From NCBI GenBank assembly GCA_050084515.1, contig CM114271.1, forward strand, positions 42,780,001 to 42,844,000: a DNA stretch of 64,000 bases, in the 5' to 3' direction. How positions within the stretch are numbered: the first letter of the stretch is position 1; every line of letters starts with the position of its first letter. Shown one piece after another: positions 24,601 to 58,300 of this stretch. The notes beneath the pieces were generated by a model. It was not told the origin of the DNA. It did no database searches and saw only the letters and a list, made by a program, of their open reading frames with translations. A program made the position numbers and the translations under genes. This DNA comes from Blasia pusilla (lineage: Eukaryota).

Positions 24601-27600
24601 AAGACCTAGCATACTAAATCACGGCCAAAAGCTTCAGATGAAGAAGAGTCTGCACTGTCAAATTCTGCATATAGCAAACACTCACTAATAAAGTGTTGAC
24701 CTATTTGTGATACCTTACCAGAATTAGGTCCACTTGCACCAGTCTGTGATTGCAATTTTTTGTTGACAGCCATCATAGAACCCACAAGTTTGTTAACGTC
24801 CACCACGAGCATATTTGGCTGCATAGTTTCAAGTTCTCAGTTCCAAAGTAGAAACCATTGTGAAACAACCTGTAGATGCTACTTGAATTTGAATTGATCA
24901 CTCTGGAACATGATAGATACTTGGTTGTTATCAAAGCTGACAAGAAATTGGTGCTAGGAAGATCACATCACTTCACCAAATCAGAACAGGATTCATGTAA
25001 GCAGAAAAGTTTGGTGGAGTTAGTCAACTCGCTAGATTCCCTTGTTAGACAGAAGTGAGGAGAAGCACAAAAATCCTAGCTACTCGGTACAAATAATGGG
25101 ACATCCAGACACAACTCTTTGTCTCTACTGTTTTACACTCCCAGAATTCTCGTGTTAGTTTGAGCAGCGATTGGCCCTTTTCCTTATAAGTCTTGTCCAA
25201 AAGAATTGAACGAGCAGTCTCAGCAGAATTGTTTGAGGTTGATTGCCATGTTGAAATTTGTTAATATCTAGTTTAGTCATGCCCTAAAAGTAGTTAGTCA
25301 AATACTAACTTAGTTGGATTTATTTAGTTAGCTAGAGATAACTTAGTGTTCCTCTATCTTTTTAGGGTAACCTTGAATTAGGGCAATTCTCGAGTTAGGG
25401 CTAGCCACCATCTGTTATTTAGGGTATGGATCTGTTCAAGAAGATCCAAGGGCCAGAAGTGCTCACCCTCATGTATATAATGTCTCTCTTTAGAGAGCAG
25501 AAGCCAATTCTACAGCATGCACAGTTTTGGTGAGGACTCCTCAGGCTCTTGGTCCTGCTGCAGAGTGATCAGAGAATAGGAAGAGGAGATTGAGACTAAT
25601 TGCTGTGCTTGCTAGAGCCTCACTGGAAGGCAGGTTGTTTTGTCTAGTATGCTGATGGAGATTGTTTGTGCTCAATGGTGAGCCATGTCTGATCTCTGAG
25701 CTGGTGACATGTGAGGACCTGTAGTGTGAGTGCAAGGTGTGGCTGAGTAGAATCCTTCTTAGTATCTCTTAGATAGTAAGAAGAGTCACATCATGGTAGG
25801 GCTCTGATTTGGCAATAGAGATAGGAACTGATTTGCTGATTGTGTACAAGCTGAAATCATGGATGGTCTAGCTGATGCTAGCTCTGACTTTGTACAAGGA
25901 GATACTTCTGCTGGTCAATCATTTTCTCAGGTTATGGGCCCACCCCAAACCTTTCTCCTTAGTGATTTCAGCAGTGTAGAGAAGTTAGATGGTGGGAACT
26001 ATAGAGAATGGTCCAGAACCATGATGAACATTCTAATGCTGAAAGGGTTGTGGGTGTATGTTGAGATGAAACCTCACAATCTAGAAGAGCTTGTGGTAAA
26101 CTTCGCTTGGAGACAGCAAAATCAGTTGGCAGCTATCTTACTCAAACAGACCCTGAACTCCTCTATGAGGGAGTTGGTGGATGGTATAAGCAATGCTTGG
26201 GAGATCTGGTCCAAGCTGAAGAGTTTGAACAAGGAGTCAGCTTTGACTCTAGCTATGCAAAGATGGAAGACATTGAGCTCGACAAGGATGGCTGACACAG
26301 ATAGAGTTGCAGCTCACATTGCCAAAATGGAGTCAACTTTTGCACAAGTGAAAGCAGTTGGACAGGAACTGATTCCTATATGGAAGGTAACCCTGTTGCT
26401 ATCCTCCTAACCTCCTCGATTTGATACAATGGTTACAATCTTTGAAACCTGGGAGGCAGATTTGCTTACATGGGAATCTCAGACCAACAAGCTCCTGAGA
26501 TATGATCAGAAGCGAGAGGTGATTGTGGAAGAAACAGTCATGCTCAACAGGGATAGGAAGTGGAAAGAGACCAGAACTTGTTACATTTGTGCAGAGAAGG
26601 GACATCTTGCTACTTAATTGTCCAAAGAAGTTGAAAAGGGGAGAGAAAGTTAAAAGGAGTGGATCTGCAGTCAAGAATCAAGAGAAGTTGATGGAGAAGC
26701 AAAGGACCTCCTACAGGGGAGAAGGATAAGGCAAAGGTTGCTGGAGTGATGACTACTGAATACACATCTGATGAAAGTTGTTGTTCTTTCATGATGGCCT
26801 CGTGTGAGAAAGATCTCAAGAGGAGCAGTGGATGGTGGGTGGACTCCGGTGCAACATCACATGTCTGTTATCAAGAGGAGTTGTTCTCAGACATAAAACC
26901 AGCAAGTAATCATCACGTGAGAAGTGCTTCTGGATTGTTAAGTCCTGTGGGAGGGGTTGGCTCAGTTTCTATTTTCTTCAGTGCTGATGAAAGCAAATTG
27001 ATGAAATGGCAGCTGCATGGAGTGTTATATGTTGCAGATTACATAAAAAATCTGTTGTCAGTTAAGAAATTATTGGAGGCAGGAATTGATGTGCACTTCT
27101 GGAACTCAAGACTTGCACACTTGAGAGAAACGGGAAAGTCTTGTGCCGAGGAGTGGTACAAGGAAATTTGTTCAAACTGCTGGAATGTGATCCAGAGGAG
27201 CAGGTAAATCTCACTGAGAATAGGAGCTTGCTGAATCTGTGGCATTGCAGATTGGGGCACCTATCGGAACACAGCATTCGAGCTCTGCAAGGAATGTCAT
27301 GTGCTGTGGAGATTGAGAAGTCACAGAAGCTTGAGTTCTGTGAGGCTTGTGTGCAAGGGAAAGCTCACAAGTCACCTGCTCCCAGAAGGTCACTTAACAG
27401 GTCTGAAAGATTATTGGACTTGATTCACTCTGATGTGTGTGGACCAATGCCTGTAAAGTCACTAGGAGGAGCACGCTATTTTGTGTCATTTGTGGACGAC
27501 AAGAGTAGAAAGAGCTTTGTGTACCTGATAAGCAGCAAGGCTCAAGTTCTAGAGAAATTTGTTATCTTTGTCAACATGACAGAGAGGCAAGTTGAACGAA

Positions 27601-30600
27601 GAGTGAAGAGACTTAGGTCTGATGGAGGAGGAGAATATGCAAGTAAAGACTTTCAAGCATATCTCTCAGCCAAGGGGATATTAAAAGATGTTACGGCACG
27701 TGACAGCCCCCACCAAAATGGAGTAGCTGAAAGGTTGAATAGAACCTTGCAAGAGAAAGCCTTGAGCATGTTGCAACATGCCAAGCTTGGTCAAGAATTC
27801 TGGGGAGCAGCTATCATGACAGCGAATTATCTGAGGAACATCAGTCCCACAGCGGCCTTGAAGAATGTAACTCCAGAAGAGTGCTGGTCTGGTAAGAAAC
27901 CTGACATTGCTAGATTGAAAGTGTTTGGTTGTGTTGGCTATGCCCTCACCCCTGATACACAAAGGAGGAAACTAGATGCAAAGGCTGACAAGTACATATT
28001 TGTTGGGTATGAAGAAGGGCTGAAAGGATACATGTTGTATAATCCTAGAACCTGCAAGGCAATTGAAGCAATGATGTGACTTTTGATGAGAAGAGTTTTT
28101 GGAAAGACTCTGAGCACAAAGAGTCAATGGTCACCAGAGTGATGCCAGTAATCACTTCTGTTGTCACTCCTGAAAACATCCCTGTAGTGTCGAACTCACA
28201 TCAAGATGCTGATAAGGAGGAAGTATCAAAGGATACACTTGCAGAATGTAGTGGAGGATTAGATACTTGCACCCAAGGTGTAAGAGAGGAAGATCATGTT
28301 GAAAATGATCAGCCTATGAAGGTGTACCAAAGGAGAAGTGCAGCCAAGCAAGTTCTAGAGGCACATGAGTCCACAGAGGGAGTGATCAAGGAGATCTCAG
28401 AGCAAAGGAGATCTGGAAGAATTTCCAAACCTGTAGAAAGGTTGGGGATAAACGAAGCTCATTCTATTGAAGAAGGAGTTGTAGAGCCCAACTCTTTGAG
28501 TGAGACTATGAGCAGGAATGATTCAAACAGTGGGAGCAGGCTGTGGCAGAAGAAAAGGTCTCATTAGAGAAAAATGAGACATGGGAGTTTGTAGATTTGC
28601 CACCTGGTAGAAAGACCATTGGTTGCAAATGGGTCTTCAGAATAAAAAGGGGACCAAAGAATGAGATCTTGAAGTACAAGGCACGTCTGGTTGCAAAAGG
28701 CTTCAATCAGGAGGCTGGTTTAGACTATCAGGAGACCTTTGCTCCTGTTGCAAGGTATGGATCCATTAGAGTTCTCTTGGCATTAGCAGCTCAACATAAT
28801 TGGGAGGTGGAACAGATGGATGTGAAGACTGCATTCTTAAATGGAGAACTGAAAGAGGAGATCTACATGGAGGTACCAGATGGTTATACTCATCCAGGCA
28901 AGGTGTGTCTCTTGAAGAAAACCCTTTATGGCCTAAAGCAAGCACCTAGATGCTGGTATGAGAAGATGGATGCTTACCTGATCAGGAAAGGATTCCAACG
29001 TAGCAATGCAGATCAAGGAGTGTACTCCTTAGACTCCACTATGTACATAGCATTGTATGTTGATGATCTTCTGATGCTAGGAGGGAGCTTAGACACTGTA
29101 AAGAGAGTGAAGAAAGACCTCTGTCGCAACTTTGAGATGGTTGATCTGGGTCCAGCAAAGTGGCTATTGGGGATTCAGATTGAGAGAAATCGGGAAGAGA
29201 GCTGGATACGATTGAGTCAAGAAAAGTATATAGAGAGTATCTTGATCAGGTACAACATGCAAGATTGTAAGCCTGTATCAACACCCCTAGATCCTGGCTG
29301 CAAACTCAGCAAAGATATGGGAATTTCAACTGAAAAGGTTGACAATTTGCAAGCACTATATCAAAGTGCTGTAGGGTCATTGATGTTTGCTATGGTCTGT
29401 ACCAGAGCAGACTTAGCATACCCAGTTGGTGTCTTAGCCAGGTACACCAGCAAACCTACAATAGAACATTGGAAATGTCTGAAGAGAGTACTCAGATATT
29501 TGCGTGGCACAACAAGAACATACTTGGAATACAGGCATCAAGAAAATGGACCAATCTTGGAAGGGTTTTCAGATGCAAGTTGGGGAGATGATACTGATGA
29601 AAGAAGATCAACAAGTGGATATGTCTTCTTGTTAAGTGGAGGGGTGATCAGCTGGTGCAGTAAGAAACAAAGAACTGTTGCACTCTCTACAACTGAGGCA
29701 GAGTACATGGCGCTTTCTCTTGCTGCTCAGGAGGTGATCTGGTTAAGGAGCTTATTGAATGATCTTGGATATGAACAGATGACTCCTACATCCCTACAGG
29801 TTGACAACAAAGGAAGTATTGCATTAAGCAAAAATCCTGTTCATCATCCTAGAACAAAACACATAGACATCAAACATCACTTTGTGAGAGAAATGATAGG
29901 AAGAGAAATCTCCTTGGTTTACTGTCCAACAGAGAATATGGCAGCTGATGTCCTGACCAAACCTCTGTCACAGGACAAACATAGAAAGTGTATATCTATG
30001 ATGGGCATTACTCTAAACTCTCATTAAGAGGGAGTGTTGAAATTTGTTAATATCTAGTTTAGTCATGCCCTAAAAGTAGTTAGTCAAATACTAACTTAGT
30101 TGGATTTATTTAGTTAGCTAGAGATAACTTAGTGTTCCTCTATCTTTTTAGGGTAACCTTGAATTAGGGCAATTCTCGAGTTAGGGCTAGCCACCATCTG
30201 TTATTTAGGGTATGGATCTGTTCAAGAAGATCCAAGGGCCAGAAGTGCTCACCCTCATGTATATAATGTCTCTCTTTAGAGAGCAGAAGCCAATTCTACA
30301 GCATGCACAGTTTTGGTGAGGACTCCTCAGGCTCTTGGTCCTGCTGCAGAGTGATCAGAGAATAGGAAGAGGAGATTGAGACTAATTGCTGTGCTTGCTA
30401 GAGCCTCACTGGAAGGCAGGTTGTTTTGTCTAGTATGCTGATGGAGATTGTTTGTGCTCAATGGTGAGCCATGTCTGATCTCTGAGCTGGTGACATGTGA
30501 GGACCTGTAGTGTGAGTGCAAGGTGTGGCTGAGTAGAATCCTTCTTAGTATCTCTTAGATAGTAAGAAGAGTCACATCATGGTAGGGCTCTGATTTGGCA

Positions 30601-40249: not shown

Positions 40250-43200
40250 TATACAAGGTTTTTTTAGGCACAAGCTTTGCTCTATATTGTCACATAATGG
40301 AGGTGGTTTTGAGAACCTCACTTGCAGTAATTATGAATCCATTAAGTGGGAGGATGATTTTCGTGGTCAAGTGCAAAGGGAAGCGGAAGCATAGAGGAGG
40401 AAGGACAACTCAAAGAGGGATGGCCATGAAGCACTTGACCACGACAGAGTTGAGGGAGCATGTGGGAAAGTTGAACATTCGATTAAGGAGACAATGTTGG
40501 CTTTTGGCTCTAACATCACAACGAATTTGTGCCTTGAGTATTAGGTGAAAGAAACTAGAAGACATGTTAGGATCCGGAGTAGCTGCAAATAGGAAAATTT
40601 TGAGACAATTTCTCAGGAACATAGTGAATAGACATAGAGATGGGGCATTTGGTGGTAAGGAGGGGTTGTGGGATTTCTCCAAAGATTTGGCTAAGAATTT
40701 GTAAAGAGTGTTCAAGGTTTATTGTTATAATAAAAAAACCAAAGTCTTTTCCCAAGCCATATTTCAGTTTGGGAGTGGGCAAGTTGCCCACTACTTTTAG
40801 GAAAACTTGGGAGGGGAAAATGTGAAGACCTTGAAACGTGACAAAGAAAAAAATACCACCCTTGAGAGTTGGGGTGAGAAAAAGAGATATTCAAAGAGGT
40901 CTCCCGAGTACTACTTGCATCAGAACAACTAATTGGAATTGAGGAAGATATACCTTTAATGTTCGTTGAGGATGAAACAAGGATAAAAGAAAGGCCAATG
41001 TGTATTTGAATCTTTGGAGTCACTTCACCTTGATATATAGATATATGGGTATGCACTATCATGATGGTTATACTACTTTGCACATTTATTTGTCATGTCT
41101 ATTGTTCTTTATTGGGCTTGTGTTCTAACTTGATATTGTTGTTGTGATAGATGGGAGGCTAAATATGAGACTTTGATTGGTTTTTTCCGTCCCTCGGAAA
41201 AACATACATGCAAGTATACATGCTCTTTTGGCTTGGAAGTACTTTTTGGGGAAGATAATAGAGATATGACAAAATTGTGAGTATTTTTTAGAAATATGTC
41301 AAAGGTATGTATGCTACAATAGTACTTGTGAATCCTTTGCATGAGAAAATGACAAAATTGGAGCTTTATGCCACCGCAACTTATAATCGATTCAAAGCAG
41401 ACAAGGTGAGAGAGCATTTGGTGCAACTGAAATCCATTTGGGATAAATATTGCACAACAGATGTTGGTCCTATATTGTGGAATGCTTGTGATGGTGATGC
41501 TCATCGTAGGAAATTAATGATGGAAGATTATACTGATGTGAATGGTTCTTTTCCAAGGTACAAGGTAGGGTGGGAAGGGTGGTAGTACTTTATGTCCATT
41601 CTTCCAAATGGATACTTGTATGGCTTTGGAGATATCACGTCTTTTAGGATAGATCGGTGAGATGTAGTAGAGCGCCTTCATGAGTAGTGGATGACAAGCT
41701 CAATAGGTCGAGGATGACCTGTTGAGGCCCTAGGAAATCTAAGAGAGTAGGTTTCCCCTTCGTTTCGGCTCATTTGGAGCCATATTGAAAAACTTACTAT
41801 TTTAGGTAAGTACCCTTTTGAGTATATGCTTGAGTTTCTATTTTTGGTAAATGGCCTTTGACCTCCTACATCAGGTCAAGAGCCAAGGAGGTGACTTGGG
41901 AGAATAGGTTACCATGGAGAGAGCTTGGGAGAGGGGAGGGGTATACCTCAAGGAGAGAGAGCTTGAGAGCTCATTCTCTCTTTGTTGAACCTCTTGGCAT
42001 GAGGCGGCGGAGCTATGGTACCTTGCCTTGTGAGTGTAACCCAAGCCACTCATTAGGAGAGTGGGTTTGGTTTGACATGAGAGAGAGTGCACACCTTTGA
42101 GAGCTATGGTGTGAGATGGTGTAGAGAGAGATTGGATCTTACTTTATTGGATATATTTTAGTACTTCTAGTCTCGTTGTTTGGATGCCATGAGTTTGCAT
42201 GGGATCTTGCGTGTGTGTTCGGTGACAACAATGCATATTGTGTAGCGATGTGTATGCGCACGACAGAGACCAAGATCCACCACACAATGGCAAAAAGGGT
42301 ATTAACCCATTTGATAGATGTGCTTCTATGCTAGTGTTTGGTGACCAACATGTGTCATTGTCTTACATGACATCTATTTATAACCATTATAAAATTGAGG
42401 AGCATCGCTTGAATTGGGATGATTTGAATAGGACCGACACGCAAAATTGGACTAGCCCACAACGGATAGCATCCATGAGAGTGCAAGCCAGGCTACACCA
42501 CATGTTTGAGCGGCAAGATGTTTGACATAATAGAAGCTTTGACATAATAGAAGCTTTGGGACTAAGTTGTACCTTGAGATTTTTGCAAATTACATTGACA
42601 TTTTCTTCTCTGTTAAGCATGACTTGCAAACTCGTATAGTATTGGCATTTAAGGTATCTTGGTTTCACCATTTATGGAGGCTATGGTTGAGATATGATGA
42701 CCATTCTATGACGGGGAATACGTGATGTGTCACATGAAAAGCCTGAATAGAGACATGATCTATATTCATGCTTTTCATGATATCAACATATGCATGTCTT
42801 GTCATTTAATTGTACTCTTAATTTGTGCATTTTGAGACAAGTTTCCATATTTGCAAGTTCCACTTTACTTGCTAGGATCTCATTGTTGTGAGAATTTTTT
42901 CAACAAGGTAGGTGGCATGAGTGGTCATGAAAGAAACTATGATTTTGGATATCTATTAGATAGTGGAGTAGGAGTGAATCAACTGGTTGGCTTAGAGTAT
43001 GAACCAGAAGGATTAAAGATACGTTGCTTTCATCATAAGCAAGATCATGTTTGGGCAAAATTTCATCCTCTTAGTAAGGGAGATCAGGCTCCAAATCTAT
43101 TTTGATTATTCATTGGTTGGCACTAATGAGCTCATTGTTGATGCTCTTAAAGAAGGGTTGGATGCAACAAAAGAGCTTTTGCGGTTGTTGAACATGTCTC

Positions 43201-44190: not shown

Positions 44191-45018
44191 TGTTTATGTT
44201 TGAGACATGTTGGATTCAATCCTTTTGTGGATTGTGCTTACAATATAGTTGACGCTATTGAACTATGAGTAGGATAGTGGGAGGGAGTAGACTAGGGGGA
44301 TGGGAGATTGGCTGACTGAGCTTCTTGCTAAATTAGGAGTTCAATTCCCCTCTATCATAGTGCAAGGACAATATGTTGGATGTTAATTACGGCCTCTACA
44401 AGTGTCGTGTGTTATAAATTCTTGGTCCTGGCGGCTCTACGTTGTGGTTTGTAGTTTTGGATGGAGAGGCCATCTAGCGGTGACTCTATGCTACGTGTCA
44501 CTACAAGAATGGCCATACTAGGAACTAGATCCTCTAGACCAAGAGCATCCTAGGGCAAGCCTTGCGGCTCTGCTCCCTGACGCCGCGTGCGGAAGTTTGG
44601 CAGCCATCTCCACAATATTCTCACGCTCGATCTGCTTTGCTTCATAATATCGGCCGTAGAGCTAGCACGTTTGGTCTGTTACTTCTTGGTTTGTGCGATG
44701 GAAGTCTCGAGAATGGTACGCTTTGCACTAAACTTCCAAGCTCCCACCCTGACACTCTGCCTGCCAATTGCATTTGCTAGTTTGGGCGCTCAATGTGGTT
44801 TTCCTTTCCATCTCCTTTCATTGACCGACAGAGCTTCTGATTTCATCCGAATCTGCTCTTGCGCTCTTGATCAGTTACCTTGGCGCAAGTCACTCTTGGT
44901 CCTGGACTTTGGATTAGCCCATTTTACATTCAACAACTCTTTGTCTTTGTTACGCTGTGGTGCTCATCAAGTTAGTTATCGCCGCTTGAGCAGTTCCGGT
45001 ATTTTTCGAGATCGCTGC

Positions 45019-45516
45019 TGTCACGTCTTTTAGGATAGATCGGTGAGATCTAAAAGAGCGCCTTCGTGAGACACGCCCAGTAGGTTGAGGGTGACCTGCT
45101 GAGGCCCTTGGAAACCTGAGATAGCAGGTTTCCCCTTCGTTTCGGCTCATTTGGGGCCATATTGAAGAACTTATTATTTTAGGTAAGTACCATTTTGAGT
45201 ATATGATCGACTTACTATTTTTGGTAAGTGGCCCTTGACCTCCTACACCAGGTCAAGAGCCAAGGAGGTGACTTGGGAGAATAGGTTACCATGGAGAGAG
45301 CTTGGGAGGGGTATACCTCAAGGAGAGAGAGCTTGAGAGCTCATTCTCTCTTTATTGAACCTCTTGGCATGAGGCGGCGGAGCTATGGTACCTTGCCTTG
45401 TGAGTGTAACCCAAGCCTTTCATTAGGAGAGTGGGTTTGGTTTGACATGAGAGAGAGTGCACACCTTTGAGAGCTATGGTGTGAGATGGTGGAGAGAGAG
45501 ATTGGATCTTACTTTA
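45019..45516 (+). repeat. Repeat A1
   Basis: Matches 54691-55204 with scattered substitutions and two short deletions. Homology stops at GGATCTTACTTTA and is not followed by B. Confidence 0.95.
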
Positions 45517-45531
45517 CAAAGAGAGAATGAG
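45516..45531 (+). promoter_or_regulatory. Putative self-priming PBS
   Basis: ACAAAGAGAGAATGAG is the reverse complement of CTCATTCTCTCTTTGT inside repeat A (16/16 at 55028-55043 and 41970-41985; 15/16 at 45340-45355). That site lies ~28 bp downstream of a TATA-like GTATACC (45311). Confidence 0.7.
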
Positions 45532-46084
45532 AGAGTGAGAGAGATTTATGGGGGAGCTCGCTGGTCACTCGCATTTTTTGCAGGTTGGGGATTGTGTTCC
45601 CCGTTCAGCGGCTCATGGGAGTGCTCACCGGAGCAAGGACTGCTTTCATTATTCTTTGCATTTGCCGATTTTTCGTGTGGAAGAGTGGTGCGCGGAAGCG
45701 CTGCCCATATTTCTGATAGGGATTGAGTATGGGGGCGGGTTGCCCCATGCTGGTGCTCTCGGGAGCACCATGTAGCTTGCTGATTTGTATTTTTACAGAT
45801 GTTACATTTTCGTTGGGAGAAATCAGCGCGGGAGCGTTGCCGAATTTTGTGTAGGAGAAAGAGACATTGGGCTTTACGACAGTCCCCGTCAGTTTTTATT
45901 GAAATGTCCGATTCTAAATATTTTTTAATTCTGGCGTAGATTGTGAAGCTGTGCACGCTGTGCAATAAACAGTGGACAATTTGGAGTTGCGAGCAAAAAG
46001 TTATGGTCAATCTTGTAAAGCTGCCATTGCTAGGCGATTTTTAGGGTTAAATTGTGCAAACCCTAAATCAGCCGCCACACCGGC

Positions 46085-46270
46085 GGTGGCGGTCGCCATC
46101 ATAGTCACCATCACCGTTCGACGGTCAACCATCACCATCACCGTCGATAGTCAACCGTCATAGTCAACGGTCAACCATCGCCGTCGACGGTCAACCGTCA
46201 TCGTCATCGGTCGGCCGTCACCATCAGCGGTCAACCGTCACTGTCAACGGTCCACCGTCCATTGTCCACC
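46085..46270 (+). repeat. Low-complexity CCGTCA/CGGTCAAC short tandem array in the element's 5' UTR
   Basis: Reiterated CACCATCACCGT, ACGGTCAACC and CCGTCATC motifs. Confidence 0.8.
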
Positions 46271-47060
46271 CTTTGGGTGCCTTTGCCGCCATTACGGAGT
46301 GGAGGGTCTTCCACGACGTTCGTTGATTCCTTGACTTGGGTCGCCACCACGTACTTTGTTTTGGCCGCCACCGTCATCGCAGTTTCTTCATCAACCAGTG
46401 ATGGCATATGACCTCCGGTTATGGTGTTTGAGTTTTGATTTCATGCTGCTATGTTGTGATTGGTAGCCGCTTGATGACGATCGAGTATCGTGCCGCTCGT
46501 GGCCGCACCGCACCGTCTCGATCGCGGAGCCGCACCGTCATTGTGGAGCAGAGTGGGGGATTATTATTGATTGAGGAGGGTATGCCGCCGAGTGCCGCAT
46601 CCCACCATCGAGGGCCGTGCCGTTCGTAGCCGTTCCGTGCCGCCTGCAACGCCGCACCGTTCCGTTGGGACCGCACTATCTATCGAGGAGTTTTGAGCAG
46701 CATCAGTACGGGAGGAGTATGACTTGCTGATTGGAGGAGTTGTCTCCACGATCGAGTTGGGGTCGAGATTTGCAGTTGCTGAGGAGCGACATCGACATGT
46801 GTTCAGGTTACCCATTCTGGTCCTTTACCCTACAGGTGTGAGGGATTCTAGGATTTATTTGGGGATATTGGGTGTGTGGATGCTGAGAGCATCATTTATG
46901 TATGTGGTTTAGGGGACATAGACTTGTGTGGGATGTCCGGAGTTGAAGGTAGGTTGTCGATGAGATGATAGCTTGGTCGATTTGCCGCACCACGCCGCGT
47001 GTTGCCGCACGTTACACGTCTCGGGGAGAGAGAGTGTAGATCAAGTGCCGCATGTTTGGG

Positions 47061-48400
47061 ATGAGTGATTGAGGGATTCCTCACGAAGTTCAGAGTGATC
47101 AGGTGAGAGGGGCACGAGGGTCATCACGCAGTCCGTTCGGGACTTTGAGAGGCGAGGTGGTGAACCCGAGAGTAGCTCTAGAGGTTTTACGCGGAGTGGC
47201 GCGAGGTTCCGAGGGTCTCCACGTGAGGGACCACCTCGACCTCCTTCTGTGTCATCGTCAGACGAGGGGGAGGGTGTAGAGGAGTTTGTGAGCACATTGC
47301 CACACTTTGTGAGTGGTCCTACCAGTTGGGCGTACGAGATGGACGACCGGGGTAGAGGACGCGAGGTTTTCAGTGCGATGAGGCACGATTGAGTTGCACG
47401 ATTTTATAGCAGAGTTTAGGAGTTGGTGCAACTCCCAGCGGGCCAGGAACTCTAGAGAGTTCAACCCATTTACAACATGGAACGGTATGTTCCAGCATTT
47501 AGAGGGGGCGCCCGTGGACGATTACCATGAGTTCTCTCAGAGATATGCATGTGAGGTCGAGGCGTGGAGGCTCTACTATGACCCACATTATGTGTCATGG
47601 ACGGAGCCGTTCCCAGATGAAGAGGAGGAGTCGGGAGAGGCTACTTCCTCTTCCACTAGTGACGTTTTAGGAGGGGTCACTCGCACGGGAGCACTTGCAC
47701 CGTCTAGTCGGGTTCGTCCCAGGTTCAACCCTGTGGTTGAGTTCTTTGTTGAGTTGAGGGCGAGCTACCAAGGGGTACGGATGGAGAAGTTGCGGAGCAT
47801 CCACGACTTCCAGAGGCGCCCGGGTGAGAGTTTGCGTGAGGCTTACACTCGCTTGCGCCGGTTGATCAACGTCACTCAGGGGGTGACAGAGACTCAGGCT
47901 ATCCAGTCATGGTACGCGATGCTGGACCAGACCCTACGGACACAGGTGTGGGAGGGGGTGATTCTTATGAACACCTCCCCTACGTTGAGAGATGTTTTTA
48001 GGACCGTTGAGAACATTGAGCGCAACATGGCGGAGGAGATCGTAGCCACCATGGGTTTTGGGCGAGAGCAGTCACGATTGTCTGCACCACCCGTGCAGCA
48101 ACGTGGACTCCGAGATAGGTCGACTGTGGCACCACGAGCTCAGGGAGGATATCGGGAGACCGTGCCACAGAGACCTACGCCTTCATATGCGGCTCAACAG
48201 TAGCTGCCTACTATTACTTGTTGGTCATGTGGTGGAGCCCATCATCAGCGCGATTGCACTCGTTAGGGTCATGGACGTGTGCCTCAGCATGGAGGAGGAG
48301 ATGGTCTTTGCACAGGAGGTTATCAGTGTGACTATAGTCGAGGTATGGTCATACACACGCCAGGTGTTTCAGTTTACATCCTGAGTTACGTCCGGACCGA
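47061..48400 (+). pseudogene. Gag (retrotransposon gag domain + zinc knuckles)
   Basis: ATG 47061 is in frame with ORF 47394-48203 (FFVELRASYQG...DFQRRPGESLREAYTRLRRL). CWSCGGAHHQRDC at ~48219-48257, plus a second degenerate knuckle. In-frame stops present. Confidence 0.8.
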
Positions 48401-49089
48401 GGGCCAGAGAGGGCACCAGAGCGAGTAGCCGGTCCGGGTGCACCTAGAGATCGTGCACCAGGTGGTCCCGTTGGGGGACGAGGAGCTGGAGTTGCCCGAC
48501 AGGGTGGTGGAGCTGCTCATGGAGGAGGTAGAGTACCACCACCTAGACGCGCCGAGGGAGATGCCGGACGTGAGGCTGGGATGGTCGCTCGAAAGACCTC
48601 TGAGGAGCGATTGCCGCTATGGCATTGAGGTTACCCGATGCCGGATCCGTGGCATCGACATCATATGGAGCATCCAGAGATCTCGAGGATCTTGGATGGA
48701 TGTGTGGGGTTGCCCAGATGGAGGCCACCGCAGTTGTGACGCGTGGAGCAGCCGCAGAGTTGGATCCACAACGAGGGGAAGCCAGAAGACAGACTAGGCT
48801 TCCTCAGTCTTTCATGTTGTCCGAAGCGAAGAGGATCCCATCGCTGGGTCCTCATCAAAGTTCCTCGAGAGTTGGTGATGTTATTGGTGTGCAGGCACGA
48901 AGGGCAATGGGAGAAGCGAGTGCAACGACTCCTATTGTTGATGCTCAGGAGGGGCATGTGTCGAGCACGTTGTTGGGGGCGGCCACCGTTGTGTACCGCA
49001 CTCCTTTATTTTCTGCTTCGATGTTATGACGTTGGGGGGTACGCCCGCCAAGGCTTGGCTGGCTGGCCGCTTCACTATGTGAGCGCGAG

Positions 49090-49640
49090 TTGGAGTTCTG
49101 CATCACGTTCAGAGGTGATTGCAGAGGAGGTGATGGACCTGCCCTTGAGCGGATGCTCGGGCCGCCCACGTCGATTCATGGTAGGTCGGTCGCTAGGATG
49201 GCGGAGATGCCCGCTAGACCCGCGATAGAGCGTGCCATGGCTTCTCCTGGTGTTGTGTTGCTGGATAACCGAGGAGAGGTCTTCCAATTGGTGAGTCCTG
49301 GAGGTAGAGCTTTTAGTCCGCAGCGTGTCTTGTTGGATTCAGGAGCGCAACCCTTGATGTTGGGGAAAGTGTCATTCAGAGGATTGGGCTTGACGAGAGC
49401 CGATGTGGAGCGTTGTCCATTTCGGATATAGACATCCTTGGGTGGAGCGAGTACCACACAGTATATCACCCGACAGGAGGTCGTGGTGAGGATTCGCCCG
49501 GGACATCCTACAGATGAGTCCGTGGTGCGCGCCAAGGTGATAGTGACTGATGCAGAGTCCTACGACGTCTTGGTTGGTAGAGCAGTGTGTACCCGATGGG
49601 GTTTTCCCTGGATTATTGGGAGGAGTCAGCGTCCTACAGA
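49090..49640 (+). pseudogene. Aspartic protease
   Basis: RVLLDSGAQPLMLG catalytic motif (~49324-49365) and YDVLVG C-terminal motif. Confidence 0.85.
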
Positions 49641-50039
49641 CCAGGATGGCAGTTAGGTGATGGGCGCCTTAGCTCATTACCCGTTCGATTCACAGGTGCA
49701 GTGATCGAGCAACGGCCAGGAGAGATGGCGACCTTAGCAGCATTTAGCAGTGCCATCACTTGGCCTAGTGATTTGATTGAGGGACATGTCCATGCAGAGG
49801 ATACTCCCGTTCCTGACATTTCTATGGAGAGGAGTGTTATGGTAGCTGCATCATTCCGTGGAGGAGAGGTGCCGCTGTGGGGCTCGACTGAGGAGCTTCA
49901 ATGATTGGCAGATGAGCACGTGCAGACCGCGTGGAGCGAGGCGTTTGCACCAGAGCGTGACGGGTCTGAGGAACCCGAGGTAGCAGGGAGTGCTACGATG
50001 ACACCCTTGGATACCACAACCATTGTGTGGTGTACCCCG

Positions 50040-50975
50040 GAGGAGGGTATTTGAGTGTTAGATCTCTTTGGAGGGATTAGCACCGGGTTAGCTGCTGTTT
50101 TGCAGGCAGGAGTGCGAGTACAGCAGTACCTGTCTGTGGAGAGTGATGATGTTGCACGACGCGTCTCACTATGACATGTGTCGCAATTACGCCTACGTTT
50201 TCCCGACTTATTGTCTGCGTCCGCAGTACAGGGGTACCAGAGTTCCCTACCGAGGGATATTTTGTTGTTGGGGGCGCAGGACTTAGAGCGGGTAGTGACC
50301 ATTGATTTGGTCATTTCCGGTTGGCCATGTCAGGGCCAATCAAGTGCTGGACGAGGCAGCGGGTTGGCTGACACTCGGTCCAGGTTGTTTTGGGAGATGT
50401 TGAGGGTCTTACGGCAGTTGCAGGAGCACCAGTCTCGTTCTCCAGCCTACATTCTGGAGAATGTGCCGATCTTAGGAGACTCCAGGTCACGGATCATGAC
50501 GAGTGCTCATCAGGTGCGTGCCTGGATCGGCCTAGCAGTGTTCTTGGATGCGGCGAGTGTAGGTTCTAGAGCCCATCGCCCGCGTCTATGGTGGGCCACT
50601 TGGTGCCCCATGCGGTGTTATGGAGGGCGTATGCGAGAGTGGAGCGCCCCTCCCCTTTGTTAGTGGATTCCATTTCGATCCGGTCGCCGATCACAGCAAG
50701 CGGTGAGGCACGATGATCGACCACCGCCGTTGGTCAACAGTAGTCAGGGTAGGCAGCGCCGTGGCGCGCCTTGCCCACGTTTGTGAGTTTTCCCGCTTCC
50801 TATGCATACAAGGAGGCCGGTCCTGGCTTGGTTTGGGATGACCAAGTTCAGCGGTTGGTGGAGCCCAACGCCGACGAGAGAGAGTGAGCGATGGGATTTC
50901 CCATAGGAGTGACGGCAGTACCATCATCATCGGAGAGGCATCACGACGCCATGTCTTGGGTCAGCGATGGACTGA
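50040..50975 (+). pseudogene. C5 DNA cytosine methyltransferase domain (DNMT3-like) within pol
   Basis: Motif I VLDLFGGI (50055), II SVE, IV GWPCQG (PCQ 50325-50333), VI ILENV (ENV 50457-50465), VIII AHRPRLWW, IX/X ERE*AMGFPIGVT...RRHVLG (~50877-50960). In-frame TGA stops at 50052 and 50172; indels after ~50600. Confidence 0.9.
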
Positions 50976-51339
50976 ATCGCTTGACATGGATCCTCGGCCT
51001 TGGGAGTGGGCGAGGCGTCGTATGAGATCGCGACAGATCAGCCGGTTGTGTTGGTGAGCCCCATGCCTACCGAGACGGTGGAGGCAGTGGCTGGGGGCGA
51101 GACCCGAGGAGATATACGCACCAGGGGAGATCGGGAGAGACAATCTTGGACTTCTTGGGATGTTTTGCAGGTACGCAAGGAGATGATAGCCACAACATTG
51201 AGCATGGTTTCGGGCACTGCACGTGGAGGAGATTAGAGTTTGCAGTTGGCTGCAGGAGAGCGGCCGAGTGTTGTTGTTCGAGACGGGGTTGCACCATAGC
51301 AACCACCGATACCCGCGCCGGAGAGTCCTATCGTAGTCA

Positions 51340-52780
51340 CGATGGAGACTTGGGAGCCAGATATGGGCCCTAAGTTGACAGGAGGAGAGCGGCGCCGAAT
51401 ACATCAGTTCCTCAGGAGTTATAGGAGCTGCTTTCCGTTTAGCATGGAGGATTTGGGTACGTTGAAGGGAGCGAGGATCCGCATTGATTTGTCGAGTGAT
51501 ATGCCGATCTTCCGACGACCCTACAAGTACAGTGATATGGAGAGGGCTCTGATTCAGAGTAGGAGCCAGGACTTGGTTGGAGCAGGACTAGTGGAGATGT
51601 CGCATGGGGAGTATGCATCTGCCACTCTCATGCCCGCCAAGAAGGATGTGCATGGCAACTGGACGGATAGGCGGATGTGTGGGGATTACCGACCTATGAA
51701 TCGGCAGACGAAGTCCGATAGGTATGCCATGCCCACCCCTGAGGAGATCTTTGATGCGATTGGTCACGCAAAGGTCTTGATTCATTGATTTATGAGCCGG
51801 ATACCATCACCCCGATCAGATTGGAGGACAAAGTAAGACGGCATTTTGGGGCATCGATCCTCACGGGAAGGATTGTTTGTACCAGTGGCGGTTCTTACCA
51901 TTTGGGTTAAAGAACGCCCCGGCTGAGTTTCAGAGGGTCATGGATAGGATCTTGGCTGGTCTGGATTTTGCTAGGTGTTATATTTATGACATCGTAGTCT
52001 TTAGCGCCACGGTTGAAGAGCATGAGCAACATCTAGAGGAGGTGTTTCGACGATTGCAATTACATGGGCTGAAGCTACATCCGGGCAAGTGCAAGTTCTT
52101 CTACAACCAGATTGAGTACTTGGGTCATACAATATACCCAGGGGACCTTGGTGTTCAGCAGACGAAGGTAGAGGCTATCTCACGCATTCCACGCCCTACA
52201 GATGTGAGCCGTGTTCGCACATTCATGGGATTGGCGAACTTCTATTGGCGATATGTCAAGGGATTGATTCGATTATGGTCACTGACCTTGCTGACCAAGG
52301 TGGATCACGAGTGGCACCGGGGATGAGCAGGAGCGAGCATTTCAATTGCTCAGGACAAAGTTGGCGTCCGCACCCATCTTGAGGAGACCGATCGGGCGTC
52401 CTTTCGATTTGCACGCATTGGAGCATGTTGGGGCTTGGAGCGGTGCTCACCCAAAGCATGATGATGAGGGTAGAGAGTTCGTGGTGGCTTACGCTAGCCG
52501 CTCGAACAACGTTGCAGGCAAAGTATAGCTCGTATGAGGGTGAGTGCTTGGTGCGGTGTGGGCATCGCGCATTTCAGGTGTTACTTATTCGGCAACCCTT
52601 TACCATCATCATCGATCATCAACCACTGAAGTGGTTGATGGAGTCCGACAAGCTTGGGGAAGCTTGCCGGATGGGCTCTGTTGTTGCAGGAGTATGATTT
52701 TCAGGTGGTACATAGACTGGGGACGCTCAACCAGGATGAGATGGGTTGAGTCGTAACCCATGCCCGAGTCAACGAGATGC
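51340..52780 (+). pseudogene. Reverse transcriptase and RNase H
   Basis: YASATLMPAKKD...RRMCGDYRPMN...YAMP; LPFGLKNAPAEFQRVMD; YIYDIVVFS (YIDD mutated); EYLGH; GLGAVLTQ, VVAYASRS, YSSYEGECL, DHQPLKWL. Confidence 0.92.
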
Positions 52781-53099
52781 GGATCGGAGCTCGATGGCAT
52801 GGAGAGAGTGATGAGGAGTCGGTGCCAGGATGGCACGCGTCAGCCTATTTAGGCATGTTGGCTATGGAGAGCCAGAGTGTGGAGACTTCGATGGCGAGGT
52901 CTAGTGGAGAGTCCTTGGATCCTGAAACCAGTGAGGACACGACAAGTGGCCGAGATATTCATGATGATGGAGTAGTCTTAGAGTACCTTCAGATCTTGGC
53001 GACCTTGCAAGCACCATGGATGCTAGAGAGCGGGATCGGATCCTACAACGGGCCAGACGGTTTCGTTGGGAGGGGACACATGTTTTGAGGGTTTGGGAG

Positions 53100-54381
53100 G
53101 ATGGCAGAGTACGCGTAGCGCCGCATCCTTCGCAGAGAGCACGACTAGTGCAGCATGCCCATGAGGAGTTGGGTCACTTTGGGGTGAAGCGGACGATGCG
53201 GCTTGCTCCATTCAGTATTGGTGGCGAGGCATGCAGATTGGCGTTGAGTTTGTTTCAGGTGCATGGTGTGTGATCGGGTCCGAGCATCGTTCAATGCTCC
53301 GACTCCTCCGATTGCATCCATTACCGATCATGGGCTTAGGGTATAGATGGAGTTTGGATTTTGCGGGACCTTTGCCCTTGACGGAGCATCACAATCGTTA
53401 TGTGTTGGTGATGGTCGAGCACTTCTCAAAGTGGATCGAGTTGGTTGCATTGCCTGACAAAGCGAGTGAGGGAGTAGCTTATGCCTTCCTTGACAGAGTT
53501 TGAGTCATTATGGTGCACCGGTGAGGTGTTGATGAGACAGTGGTACCGAGTTTAGCGGTGAGTTCAGGCCTTGTGTGATCGGCGATCGACCACCGCCGCG
53601 ACCGCAGCGAGATCATCCCGAGGCGGATGGATTAGCGGAGAGAGTTGTCAGACGGTGAAGAGGGGTTTACGCAAGTATGGCTTGCAGAGAGGTCACCTAG
53701 GAGATTGGGACCTCGATTGCCATGGTTGGCGATGGGATACAAATTCAGCAGCGAGGCATCCTTAGCGTCTTTTTCACCGTACTTGCTACTTTATGGCGAG
53801 AGCCGATTTACCTCTGACCATTCGTCGAGATCTTTGGTGAGGTTTGGACCTTGATGACCCAGATGTATGGGTGCGAGCATGTTCTCAAAGGGCTGAGTTA
53901 TTTCGGAGAGTGATGCCCATGGCGTTCGAGAACTTGGCGATTGCACAACATCGGGATACATTGAGGTATGCGACTATTCGGGGTGGTGGTTATCGACCAA
54001 CTATCCGGAGGTTTCATCGGGAGATTATGTCTACTTGCGCAGACGGCACCGACGGCGTTGGATGTGATCAGAGGGCGCACTATCCGAGAGTGCGTGACAT
54101 TTTGCCATCGGGTGTTCTCTTGCTGGAGGGACGCGATGGTATGGTATGGAAGGATCATGTGCGTAATTGTGCGCCATGTCACCTTCCTAACATTGATGGT
54201 ACAGTAGATCCGAGCTTAGCAAGAGTTCCGCATGCTTGCGTTGTATGTTGTGTGGTTACGCCGGTAGTGCGCCACGATGCTAGTCTGTGATGGGTGTTCG
54301 AGAGGATGACATATGGCATGTTTGGCGCCACCTCTCACTAGGGTTCCTCGGGGGCGATGGATGTGTCCCGGATGTACCTGA
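53100..54381 (+). pseudogene. DDE integrase with C-terminal PHD finger
   Basis: HHCC zinc-binding region (HAHEELGHFG...C..C); WSLDFAGPLP...LVMVEHFSKW; GTEF; ADGLAE. PHD at ~54240-54378 (frameshifted here, intact in the 5717-5854 copy). Confidence 0.9.
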
Positions 54382-54551
54382 GTAGGTAGTTCTACATTCC
54401 GACTTGTGTATGTGACATGGATGACAAGGAGGCGACTAACGATGGGGCCACATGAGCACCCGGCCTTCTTGCTCTTAGCGTCTGAGAGATGTATGTCATG
54501 GTAGGTAGGGATAGATGGCTATATGGAGTTAGAGGGACCTAACCACCAGTT

Positions 54552-54560
54552 AGGGGGGCG
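54552..54560 (+). promoter_or_regulatory. Putative polypurine tract preceding B1
   Basis: AGGGGGGCG immediately before B1, conserved as AGGGGGGTG at 6029-6037. No purine tract precedes the TG of A2. Confidence 0.6.
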
Positions 54561-55333
54561 ATTGGAGATATTTTGGTACTTCTTGTCTCGTTATTTGGAT
54601 GCCATGAGTTAGCATGGGATCATGCGTGTTTGTGTTTGTGTTCGGTGACAGCGATGTATGTTGTGTAGCGATGTGTATGGGCACGACAGCTGTCACGTCT
54701 TTTAGGATAGATCGGTGAGATCTAATAGAGCGCCTTCGTGAGTAGTGGAGGACACGCCCAATAGGTCGAGGGTGACCTACTGAGGCCCTTGGAAACGTGA
54801 GATAGCAGGTTTCCCCTTCGTTTCGGCTCATTTGGAGCCATATTGAGGAACTTACTATTTTAGGTAAGTACCATTTTGAGTATATGATCAACTTACTATT
54901 TTTGGTAAGTGGCCCTTGATCTCCTACATCAGGTCAAGAGCCAAGGAGGTGACTTGGGAGAATAGGTTACCATGGAGAGAGCTTGGGAGAGGGGAGGGGT
55001 ATACCTCAAGGAGAGAGAGCTTGAGAGCTCATTCTCTCTTTGTTGAACCTCTTGGCATGAGGCGGAGGAGCTATGGTACCTTGCCTTGTGAGTGTAACCC
55101 AAGCCTCTCATTAGGAGAGTGGGTTTGGTTTGACATGAGAGAGAGTGCACACCTTTGAGAGCTATGGTGTGAGATGGTGGAGAGAGAGATTGGATCTTAC
55201 TTTAATTGAAGATATTTTGGTACTTCTTGTCTCGTTATTTGGATGCCATGAGTTAACATTGGGTTCATGCGTGTTTGTGTGTGTATTCGGTGACAGCGAT
55301 GTATGTTGTGTAGCGATGTGTATGCGCACGACA
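54561..55333 (+). repeat. 3' terminal B1-gc-A2-B2 array
   Basis: B1 (54561-54688) and B2 (55205-55333) are ~128-bp direct repeats flanking A2. The B1/A2 junction GACAGCTGTC (54685-54694) is a perfect palindrome. Confidence 0.95.
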
Positions 55334-58300
55334 CTGCCGCTCACAATTAGGTAAGCTTTCTTAGCTTTCGCTTATGTTCTTATTATCTTTACTCGTTGCT
55401 TGTGTATTTTTACCTTACTGATTACTAGATTACCGAAACCGGACGATTCCGAGAACTTCTACCTCGCCCAACTCTCTTCTTCTTGTCGCGTAGAAATTCC
55501 CAACCCCGAGGAGATGTTAACGTGAGAGCCTCACCGTTACATCATCCGCCGGATGCTCAGTCGTGCCTTTGGTTGGGGAAACAAATTCTTCATGTGCCCT
55601 TCGTCAAGTGGATTTCTCTGCCTACTCCAGTCTCCAATCTCTACCATGTCTTTCTCATCTCAATTTTTCCGACCGCAATAAATTCCTCAACATGTCACCT
55701 GCATCCCTGAAATCTTCAGACATTTTTCGCAGCCTTATCTTTCCACCACCTTCTTGTTGTCCCTGAAATCCACCTCGTACTGTACGATCTCCGTGAACAC
55801 GGTGTTTGCATTGTTGGATGGCATATGCATACGGTGTGTCAATAGATCTGAAACTGACATTAGAGATTGCATCCTTCCCCTTCTTGTTTCCCTTCCATGG
55901 CGGCTATTTCCAAGGGACCTCAACATTTTTTGACTATAATCGTGCTCGGAGCCGCCAACTATTTAGTCCATTTTCTTTGTTTGAGCCTTATGCTTCATTA
56001 ATGTACCAGATACGGCAAGCAATTGCGTTATGCTCTACCTCAAAAGCATTTGTTCTAAATAGGGAACTAGACCAACTTCGTAGAGATATGCCCCACTTGA
56101 GTGATGCGAGCTTGCATCACCATCTTTCTAAGTATTCAATTAGCCCCCAGATCCCAGGAAGCCCTGCATGGCATCGAAGGTATTTGAAAGATTTAAAGGC
56201 TTTGGCGCACAAATGGGGAATGCCATATTTTTTCTTAACACTAACTTCTAACAAAGTATCTGCAACAAGATGGAATGAATTTTATGATATTGAAGCTATA
56301 CTTGCCAAGTTTAACCCTGACTTCACTTGGCGTGATGCTCCAACTGAGTGTGCACTATTATTCCATACCAGACTCCACTCTTTTATATCTTCATTCAGTT
56401 TTTTAGGCCCACGTATCTTGGGAAGAGTTGCAGAATATTTGCTTTGTTATGAATTACAGGGCAGAGGGAGTTTGCATTGCTATATGATTTTATGGGTCTA
56501 TCCTGATGATGTTGGACGAATTACGTCAGAAATATGTTCATATATTCCATGTCCTGACCCCAATCTACATCTGCTCCATCCTAGATCTACCCTCAACCCA
56601 AGTGAAGAACTATTAAGCCTAGTGCTTAAGAAGATATCAAAGACTTGGAATCAAGAGTAGGTTTTGAAGACCGTACTACTAACTATCTCCAAAATGATTT
56701 GGGATCGGGATGTCACCCCTACTAACAGCAACAACGAGTATTGATGTTGTTTGTCTTGATGTAGAAGTTGTTACAGCTCATTTTGCTTTCAACATTCCGA
56801 TCCGTGGTGATATTCCATCTATGCATGCTACTCCAGATCCCTACATGAAACTTAAGGTTGCCCATGTGATTGTAGTTGATGATTTCTCAATGCTGACAAC
56901 AAAACTCTTGCAGATTATAGTCATGCGAATAAATGAAGTTGCAAAGTGCAGTAGCCAAAATCTGCTCGAAGGAAAGCTCCTCATCCTTGTAGGCCACCTA
57001 TGCCAGCTTTCACTGTTTGCAGCCACAAGGTTTCCAATTTATGTCATGGCTACCATATTACTTCCTCTAATTTCCTAAAGAGTGCACTCTCCTTTGAATT
57101 GGTTACACCTGTACGACATTCAAGTGATCCTCTTTATAATCAATTCCTAACTTCTATCAGATCTGCTATTCCAGCACAGGCCCAGATTGATGACAATCTA
57201 GGACCCTGTTTTGTGTCTCGGAATGAAGCTACAGATTTCATCACTTCTAACACAACAATCATTTGTAATCATTGTGATGATGTGGCCATGTTCAATCTCC
57301 TATCCCTCAGAAGAATTTTTGGAGATGCTTCTATTATCAAAGTGGACGTTATTTCTTACGCTCCTCCACAACCAGAATTTGATATTTGGTTAAATGATGA
57401 ATCTTTCCACCAACTACCATTCGTTGCGCTCCACTGTCGAGTTATGATTACATCTAATGTTAACTTGAAGTGCAAGGCAGCCAATGGATCTCTTGGTAGT
57501 GTTTGATCTTATCTATGAGAACAATGAGTTGGTTTATATTGTTATCATTCTTCAATCCAATGGACATTCTATCAAAATAGGTAGAATTTCTCTACTCTAA
57601 GGTATGACTCGTATCGTAAATATATCAAGAGGTCATTTCCACTTATATAAGGCTATGCCATGACTGCACACAAAATTCAAGGTTCCAATGTTGAAGGTCG
57701 TTATTTTCTGGTTGTTCAGTCAATTTTTGCATTGGGATTAGCCTATGGTATGCTATCTAGGGTAAAAAATAGAGATCTATTGCGCATATTAGGATCATTG
57801 GACCCTAATGGCTTCCTAGTAATTGGTCAGCGGGTTGCAAGTGTCTCTTAATTTTGTATTGTTACATTTTATGTAGCTTTTATATAAGCATATCGGCCAG
57901 AGCCAGCTCAAGCAAGGGACGTAGTGTCAGATCTGTTCCTCACTCACAACAAAATGAGTAGTTTCCTTTATATGACCATGAACCGAATCCAACGATTATG
58001 AGATCTTCAATCTCAGCGATAGAATCAAACCCCCACTCAATCACCAATACAGGTTAATCCCTATGCCTCCCTTCCCTCATTTTCTATATTGTCTTTTGTT
58101 GCTGTATCTAATTCATGACCCACATGTGCCCTCAAGTTACCTGGACTTTGCTAGCATGATACTTTCAGACATTCAAACACAGCCAAAGGAATTCAAGCCC
58201 AGGTTCATATTTCCCACAAAAAACAGATATAATACGTGGACAACCTAGGGATGGTTCCTGCCTTTTGGGAGCATGGTGTGACGGGAAGGCAGATCCAGAG

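Follow-up and report, generated by a model that had tools for sequence, protein, structure and literature searches.

The genome of Blasia pusilla carries, within a stretch of 64,000 nucleotides (assembly GCA_050084515.1, contig CM114271.1, forward-strand positions 42,780,001–42,844,000; in the following "the window", numbered from its first nucleotide), a Ty3/Gypsy-type retroelement whose pol region encodes a C5 cytosine DNA methyltransferase (DNMT) domain at 50040–50992. The domain is inserted between the protease and the reverse transcriptase (RT) of one single retroelement, which spans 45019–55333 (10.3 kb). Considering all observations together, the most likely explanation, in which we have good though not complete confidence, is that the window holds an inactivated copy of a Gypsy family with a Pol-borne, DNMT3-like enzyme, which would methylate the family's own cDNA or insertion.

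The presence of a C5 methyltransferase domain at this place, which an initial annotation had proposed from the nucleotide sequence and its open reading frames (ORFs), is confirmed. With X put at the stops, the Pfam profile PF00145 matched the translated window on 49905–50663 (expectation value, E, 1.4e-11; 44.9 bits) and on 50040–50975 (E 2.2e-11; 44.2 bits), in both cases above the Pfam cut-off of 22, and a Pfam scan of related proteins also gave matches above this cut-off. In a protein database search with the read-through translation of the domain, the top relative was found at E 7e-92, and 50 proteins of similar length as well as 19 longer ones were retrieved, the best of which shared 56–64% identity. 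Related proteins are referred to by numbers with the prefix P, related loci in metagenomes by numbers with the prefix L. The parts of the domain are located as follows.

49587–50039, plus strand: linker between protease and DNMT, in the frame of the DNMT N-terminal half, with a stop at 49902
50040–50620, plus strand: N-terminal half of the DNMT (PF00145, P0056 alignment); motifs I, IV, VI, and VIII share the frame of 49587, which is interrupted here by stops at 50052 and 50172
50061–50090, plus strand: DNMT motif I (DLFGGISTGL), frame starting at 49587
50319–50336, plus strand: DNMT motif IV (GWPCQG), frame starting at 49587
50451–50468, plus strand: DNMT motif VI (ILENVP), frame starting at 49587
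50562–50594, plus strand: DNMT motif VIII (GSRAHRPRLWW), frame starting at 49587
50597–50992, plus strand: DNMT C-terminal half, with the target-recognition region and motif IX in a second frame (four stops) and motif X in the first frame
50861–50902, plus strand: true DNMT motif IX (EPNADERE*AMGFP), second frame
50955–50972, plus strand: DNMT motif X (LGSAMD), first frame again, followed by a stop at 50973
50972–50992, plus strand: conserved stretch after motif X, second frame

All motifs are present in the canonical, unpermuted order I-IV-VI-VIII-IX-X, split over two frames with stops. The location between protease and RT, as claimed initially, is borne out by the PF00145 match and by the tblastn layout of relatives, and the continuity of the DNMT frame with the linker that follows the protease from 49587 onward holds in the translation and in the alignment to P0056. 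Motifs I, IV, VI, and VIII were likewise placed correctly. However, the initial annotation had assigned motif IX to ESERWDFP (50880–50903), which is a wrong-frame reading of the bases of the true motif IX, and it had overlooked the stops and frameshifts. The frame of 49587 is not open, as it contains stops at 49902, 50052, and 50172; the homologous DNMT reading switches frame at approximately 50600, and four further stops follow in the second frame. The DNMT part alone is thus interrupted by at least eight in-frame stops and changes frame several times, and according to tblastn the gag, RT, RNase H, and integrase regions of this copy switch frames as well. Hence, although its motifs are ordered correctly, the DNMT of the window copy is a pseudogene that is unable to make an enzyme, and the element, with its frame changes, its stops, and an identity of 94.2% between the terminal repeats A1 and A2 (see below), is an old and dead copy.

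Pfam searches on read-through translations and tblastn of intact relatives against the window gave the layout of the element: gag-CCHC is followed by protease, DNMT, RT, RNase H, integrase, and PHD finger. With gag located upstream, the pol order protease-RT-RNase H-integrase is that of Ty3/Gypsy elements, into which the DNMT is inserted between the first two domains. The GC content of the block formed by the element is 0.53–0.57, compared to approximately 0.39–0.46 in its surroundings. Besides the DNMT, the following coding regions were recognized.

47364–48287, plus strand: gag (tblastn of P0056 residues 13–324); gag-CCHC is read in two frames
48341–48388, plus strand: CCHC knuckle (tblastn of P0056 residues 339–354)
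48610–49605, plus strand: aspartic protease region with a DSG motif (...VLLDSGAQPLMLGK...) (tblastn of P0056 residues 409–728; translation)
51336–52326, plus strand: RT in two frames (RVT_1, PF00078, E 1.1e-21 on 51796–52326; tblastn of P0060 residues 691–962)
52322–52760, plus strand: RNase H (RT_RNaseH, PF17917, E 1.7e-8 on 52383–52697; tblastn)
52998–54218, plus strand: integrase with zinc-binding part, DDE core, and C-terminal part, in several frames (tblastn of P0083, P0235, and P0068)
54274–54375, plus strand: PHD finger at the C-terminal end of pol (PF00628, E 4.8e-9; 36.5 bits, cut-off 24)

The aspartic protease of the window copy gave no Pfam match; aspartyl-protease families of Pfam match the equivalent position in the Closterium relatives P0236 and P0097. 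The rve match to the integrase core on 53165–53503 is sub-threshold (E 5.5e-5; 23.8 bits, Pfam cut-off 32.6). The PHD finger, which had been overlooked initially together with the split direct repeats described below, is a recurrent component: among 30 related loci with 3.7 kb or more of sequence past the DNMT, 22 contain a PHD-like match, mostly at approximately 3.2 kb downstream as in the window. No chromodomain, the mark of chromoviruses, was found at the integrase C-terminus, where the PHD finger occupies that place, and Pfam scans of the window and of the relatives examined revealed no PWWP or ADD domain beside the DNMT.

The relatives with a named source in the protein search belong to Marchantia polymorpha, M. 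paleacea, Calypogeia fissa, and three Sphagnum species. In Marchantia, P0060 contains the DNMT at residues 460–529, followed by RT (833–919) and RNase H (997–1098), and P0056 (1278 amino acids) carries gag-CCHC-protease-DNMT with all motifs in a single open frame. The proteins P0083 (2188 amino acids) and P0235 (2138 amino acids) each combine CCHC, DNMT, RT, RNase H, and integrase in one ORF. The layout of the window element also exists outside the bryophytes, as P0236 of Closterium possesses three CCHC knuckles, protease, DNMT, and RT in this order. Moreover, a scan of metagenome contigs yielded 205 matched stretches, 160 of which encode a relative; the best 80 of these 160 constitute the related metagenome loci used in the following. 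The domain is consequently a feature of the family, and its private capture by one copy, which the initial annotation had named as a refutation of its proposal, does not apply: the domain recurs in 160 of 205 metagenome stretches, in the 50 plus 19 database proteins, and in polyproteins of the same domain order. A profile search among 1.84 billion representatives, with a profile that also spanned part of the upstream polyprotein, gave 6485 matches at E ≤1e-3; of these, 1899 passed a limit of 1e-10 and 537 one of 1e-30.

A profile restricted to the DNMT matched 225 of the 230 proteins collected. The DNMT precedes the RT in 11 of these and follows it in 55, and the remaining 159 have no RT in the same protein. 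The second layout, according to Pfam, is RT-RNase H-DNMT-integrase-PHD, and its named members belong to the chlorophytes Scenedesmus, Haematococcus lacustris, Chlamydomonas eustigma, and Cymbomonas tetramitiformis. The proteins of this sister group, among them P0078, P0088, P0091, and P0125, have a homologous DNMT between RNase H and integrase; between the DNMT domain of the intact relative P0001 and that of the chlorophyte-type P0068, 326 residues align at 40% identity (E 3e-62). The kinship of the two layouts extends beyond the DNMT, as the integrase C-terminus and the PHD finger of P0068 align to 53601–54621 of the window. In a FastTree phylogeny of 151 domain rows, which was rooted on five bacterial-like sequences and provides local supports only, with an uncertain rooting, all 53 rows with RT before DNMT fall into one clade of 111 rows (support 98), and the chlorophyte-layout DNMTs form one clade apart from that of the window. 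The N-terminal half of the window DNMT groups with Marchantia and Calypogeia in a clade of 15 rows (support 100), and the Closterium group forms a separate clade of 10 rows (support 97). As judged from these sequences, the DNMT-bearing Gypsy clade spans the green lineage, with the arrangement protease-DNMT-RT in bryophytes and Closterium and the arrangement RNase H-DNMT-integrase in chlorophytes.

The catalytic residues of the family DNMT are strongly conserved. Among 136 distinct family domains, the motif IV cysteine, the motif VI glutamate, and each of the two motif VIII arginines are kept in 135, the motif VI asparagine in 130, and the second glycine of motif I in 128, the other eight being gaps; the E-R-E residues of motif IX are retained in 131, 128, and 134 domains, respectively. 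Motif IV mostly reads E-C-Q and not P-C-Q among the family members, including most of the chlorophyte sister group. Pairwise dN/dS ratios (Nei-Gojobori method, NG86; codon alignments of related loci, stops skipped) were below 1 for the DNMT in 99.4% of 702 pairs from 41 loci, with a median of 0.57. Both domains lie in one frame in 14 loci, and the same 89 pairs from these gave medians of 0.52 for DNMT and 0.44 for RT; the DNMT is thus about as constrained as the RT. The constraint on the domain is seen both in this dN/dS and in the catalytic residues retained by 135 of 136 domains. Most of the 192 stops found in the 41 in-frame loci are C-to-T or G-to-A changes, which corresponds to the usual decay of methylated plant repeats.

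Structure prediction and searches of the PDB point to the DNMT3 type. A model of the intact relative P0001, calculated by AlphaFold2 (AF2) from a 46-row alignment, reached a pLDDT (predicted local distance difference test) of 92.9 and a predicted template modeling (TM) score (pTM) of 0.91; an earlier model of this type from a 14-row alignment was poor (pLDDT 52.7) and was discarded. Foldseek against the PDB retrieved only DNMT3A, 3B, and 3C among the matches listed, down to rank 48, the best at E 3.3e-19 with a TM score of 0.83 on the target and 20–23% sequence identity. By phmmer, the closest PDB sequences were DNMT3A (E 6e-12), DNMT3B (1.4e-9), and a tobacco DRM entry (1.2e-8), followed by DRM2 (1.6e-4), M.HaeIII (3.5e-4), and bacterial enzymes near 1e-3, with tRNA (cytosine(38)-C5)-methyltransferase at only 0.0069. 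The unpermuted motif order sets the family DNMT apart from DRM. With the catalytic domains of animal DNMT3A, 3B, and 3C, which are the best structural and PDB sequence matches, the family shares the unpermuted motifs and an AHRxRxxWxN signature after motif VIII; it differs from them in its embedding in a polyprotein, the absence of adjoining PWWP or ADD domains, and the mostly E-C-Q motif IV. In the ESM Atlas, one streptophyte DNMT cluster and two phage DNMT clusters lay closest among the named ones, a lead that was not used as evidence.

The family, including its DNMT, is transcribed in the sense orientation. Reads of three stranded RNA runs (X22, X23, and X24) from the organism in which this DNA is best represented, mapped to 44800–55400 at a likeness of at least 92%, cover all 30 bins of this interval. 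Depth in the four DNMT bins amounts to 10.6–56.8 on the dominant strand versus 0.18–4.06 on the other; the dominant orientation has the first mate on the minus strand, which for usual stranded libraries means sense RNA. The likeness of the reads to the window copy is distributed as follows.

RNA run X22: 2622 reads, 18 at 99% or more alike, 1914 at 90–95% alike
RNA run X23: 2639 reads, 33 at 99% or more alike, 1921 at 90–95% alike
RNA run X24: 2714 reads, 31 at 99% or more alike, 1884 at 90–95% alike

Since approximately 70% of the RNA reads are only 90–95% alike, they must mostly stem from sibling copies that also hold the DNMT. Contigs of a DNA run span all bins as well, with a very high word depth that would suit a highly repeated family but is not to be read as a copy number. 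Small numbers of RNA reads (3–13 per run) skip 51580–51884, 54018–54086, or 54908–54972 (303, 67, and 63 bases); these are most likely length differences to the transcribed siblings rather than splicing.

The termini of the element are not a pair of equal-length flanking long terminal repeats. Instead they consist of split direct repeats in the arrangement A1 ... B1-A2-B2, located as follows.

45015–45018, plus strand: candidate 4-bp target-site duplication, left (CTGC), identical to the bases after the right end
45019–45516, plus strand: terminal repeat A1, beginning with TGTCACG, 94.2% identical to A2 over 516 columns
54552–54560, plus strand: polypurine-like run (AGGGGGGCG) directly 5' of B1
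54561–54688, plus strand: repeat B1, ending with GCACGACA, 94.6% identical to B2 over 129 columns
54689–55204, plus strand: repeat A2, its first two bases being the GC spacer
55205–55333, plus strand: repeat B2, right end of the element (...ACA)
55334–55337, plus strand: candidate 4-bp target-site duplication, right (CTGC)
41635–42266, plus strand: solo A-B unit of the same family, 91.7% identical to 54693–55333 over 641 columns

The element begins with TG at the start of A1, ends with CA at the end of B2, and is flanked by CTGC on both sides; two bases (GC) separate B1 from A2, and no B-like sequence adjoins A1. The same layout is present in L064 and L062, which are one insertion seen in two samples, and in L019, with the split repeats at 1993–2336 and 10634–11203 of L064 and at 2117–2444 and 10555–11082 of L019. 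An AGGGGGG run precedes B1 in L064 and L062, too. L064 is flanked by CATA on both sides and thereby provides, together with the window, two insertions with a 4-bp duplication. In a scan of 11 loci with enough flanking sequence, both repeat pairs were detected only in L062/L064 and the A pair alone in L060; the two pairs of L019 come from a separate comparison, and the other loci are too decayed or divergent to tell. In the solo A-B unit, the two bases with which A begins are missing, and no clear target duplication flanks it. Elsewhere in the window, at 4938–6117, a fragment of another family member is 85.9% identical to 53475–54640, that is, from the integrase C-terminus up to B1. Split direct repeats of the form A1-internal-B1-A2-B2 are a feature of PAT/Ngaro-type DIRS elements, which encode a tyrosine recombinase. 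The window family differs from these by its DDE integrase, its TG...CA ends, and the 4-bp target duplication.

Symbiodinium and Klebsormidium have been known since 2018 to possess DNMTs embedded in Pol (PMC5890265; statements on this article refer to its available text), in agreement with the initial annotation. The nearest published parallel is KnitGypsy-Dnmt3 of Klebsormidium nitens, which has a Gypsy pol with a DNMT3-like domain in the Pol ORF whose key residues are conserved and which is under purifying selection; the domains are those of Gypsy, but the repeats are stated to be "the same as that of a DIRS retrotransposon" (PMC5890265). The window family shares with it the unrearranged DNMT3-like domain in a Gypsy Pol ORF and a streptophyte host, and its split repeats fit the DIRS-like description; it differs in its hosts, which are bryophyte-like land plants. 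By these shared features only, the window family can be likened to KnitGypsy-Dnmt3 as a putative land-plant member of the same kind. The chlorophyte elements resemble the window family in their homologous DNMT, integrase C-terminus, and PHD finger and differ in carrying the DNMT between RNase H and integrase instead of between protease and RT. More distant are SymbioDIRS-Dnmt3, whose DIRS-borne DNMT methylated CG in yeast, and SymbioLINE-Dnmt: both combine a retrotransposon pol or ORF with a C5 methyltransferase, but they are a tyrosine-recombinase DIRS element and a long interspersed nuclear element (LINE), respectively, reside in another host lineage, and are regarded by the authors as independent acquisitions in Symbiodinium (PMC5890265). 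Chromoviruses similarly have a chromatin-reader module fused to the integrase C-terminus (PMC6317226, available text), which in the window family is a PHD finger and not a chromodomain.

As far as our searches reach, retrotransposon-borne DNMTs are in print only for dinoflagellates and one charophyte alga. The species table of PMC5890265 includes Physcomitrella but neither Marchantia nor Sphagnum, and the words methyltransferase and PHD do not occur in the available text of the REXdb survey (PMC6317226). Within the available text of PMC12344493, PMC11982613, PMC6317226, PMC6453930, bioRxiv 363937, and bioRxiv 2021.02.12.428880, no DNMT-bearing Gypsy element is described for bryophytes or chlorophytes, and the same applies to the literature searched as a whole, the scope of which excluded supplements and most subscription journals. 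The kind of element is therefore already known; what is new concerns its hosts among land plants, the existence of two pol layouts, and the PHD finger. The initial statement that a DNMT is not a standard feature of land-plant Gypsy elements agrees with the REXdb text, but the family proved to be common in bryophytes. DNMT-bearing Gypsy elements are now known in many copies from bryophyte genomes, that of the genetic model Marchantia polymorpha among them, and from Closterium, and the sister layout is common in chlorophytes. The puzzle of a transposon that carries the kind of enzyme by which hosts silence transposons thereby moves into organisms in which it can be tested. For comparative epigenetics there is also a practical consequence, since ORFs of this family may pass for host DNMT3 genes: P0011, P0023, and P0034 from Sphagnum and Marchantia are transposable element ORFs that bear the database name "DNA (cytosine-5-)-methyltransferase", so that host DNMT counts can be inflated, as had been anticipated.

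In intact copies, the DNMT would be translated as part of Gag-Pol and would travel together with RT and integrase. De novo methylation of the element's cDNA, or of the fresh insertion, could then follow, and the copy would arrive already marked. The PHD finger might plausibly read histone tails at the target and thereby guide or tether integration, comparable to the chromodomains of chromoviruses. Possible benefits, in line with the discussion in PMC5890265, would include evasion of recognition as foreign DNA, protection from editing, an influence on the chromatin state of the insertion, and self-limitation. Methylation of the cDNA or insert may be the primary role of the DNMT, a serious possibility that nonetheless falls short of being probable. 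A more far-reaching proposal, which we regard as conceivable but on balance doubtful, is that of an ancient green-lineage Gypsy with a writer (the DNMT3-like domain) and a reader (the PHD finger), two pol layouts, DIRS-like split repeats, and a DDE integrase; equally doubtful is its continuation, according to which the element would have persisted from algae to land plants, would be transcribed in a bryophyte, and would deliver pre-methylated, chromatin-targeted copies. If true, such a delivery would be a strategy undescribed for land-plant transposons.

An unlikely but not negligible alternative is that the active DNMT acts in trans on host chromatin or competing elements, or that it silences the element itself and slows transposition to the benefit of the host. 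Conserved catalytic residues fit any DNA target, self-limitation and insertion-site effects are among the options listed in PMC5890265, and the copies are heavily decayed, mostly by C-to-T and G-to-A stops, as would be expected of methylated DNA. However, equal decay is to be expected of any plant transposon that is methylated by host enzymes, and the location within Gag-Pol speaks for an enzyme that is linked to the particle and does not act freely in the nucleus. Still, no result separates this alternative from methylation of the cDNA. Clearly less probable is an action of the DNMT on the RNA of the element (m5C), or its use as a non-catalytic nucleic acid-binding module like DNMT3L. RNA methylation was raised for the LINE-borne DNMT that was inactive on DNA in yeast (PMC5890265). 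A dead module is at odds with the retention of the catalytic cysteine, the glutamate of the ENV motif, and the RxR pair in 135 of 136 domains, and against an RNA enzyme stand the structural matches listed, all of which are DNMT3-type DNA enzymes and not DNMT2, and the weak PDB sequence match of the tRNA methyltransferase. Finally, private capture of a host DNMT3 fragment, a host gene with a nested insertion, or an assembly chimera would have as its sole point that a DNMT is foreign to a standard Gypsy pol, and can practically be dismissed in view of the protease-DNMT-RT arrangement in many independent copies and species, the RNA and DNA reads of sibling copies that cover the DNMT like the rest of the element, and the frame that continues from the protease linker into the DNMT.

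Several observations weigh against the interpretation that the family encodes a Pol-borne DNMT3-like enzyme for its own cDNA or insertion. The window copy is dead, and a fully intact element was not seen as DNA among the 80 metagenome loci; the whole DNMT is free of stops in only 2 of these 80 (in one alignment), and both, L007 and L008, have a pol that is broken elsewhere. Long intact ORFs are limited to database proteins, and part of these may be gene models in which damage has been passed over. The dN/dS of approximately 0.5 is moderate and blends selection with neutral decay, and the pairs compared are not independent. The RNA indicates transcription of the family, and neither an intact copy nor translation. 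The designation DNMT3-like is suggested by the predicted fold and the PDB scores and not by phylogeny, and the bacterial or phage-like proteins P0045–P0050 are comparable over motifs I–VI (58.9 bits, 35% identity). Moreover, no Klebsormidium sequence was among the named matches of the searches, and the kinship with KnitGypsy-Dnmt3 is for this reason one of shared features only.

The element is surrounded by further mobile DNA. A Helitron-like ORF (PF14214, Helitron_like_N, E 5.3e-19) is located at 55797–57506, approximately 460 bp past the right end of the element, and the ORF that follows it has no Pfam match. At 27090–30027, the window contains a Ty1/Copia pol with gag_pre-integrs, rve, SH3_retrovirus, and RVT_2 (E 4.5e-77), and the 64,000 nucleotides as a whole are rich in transposons.

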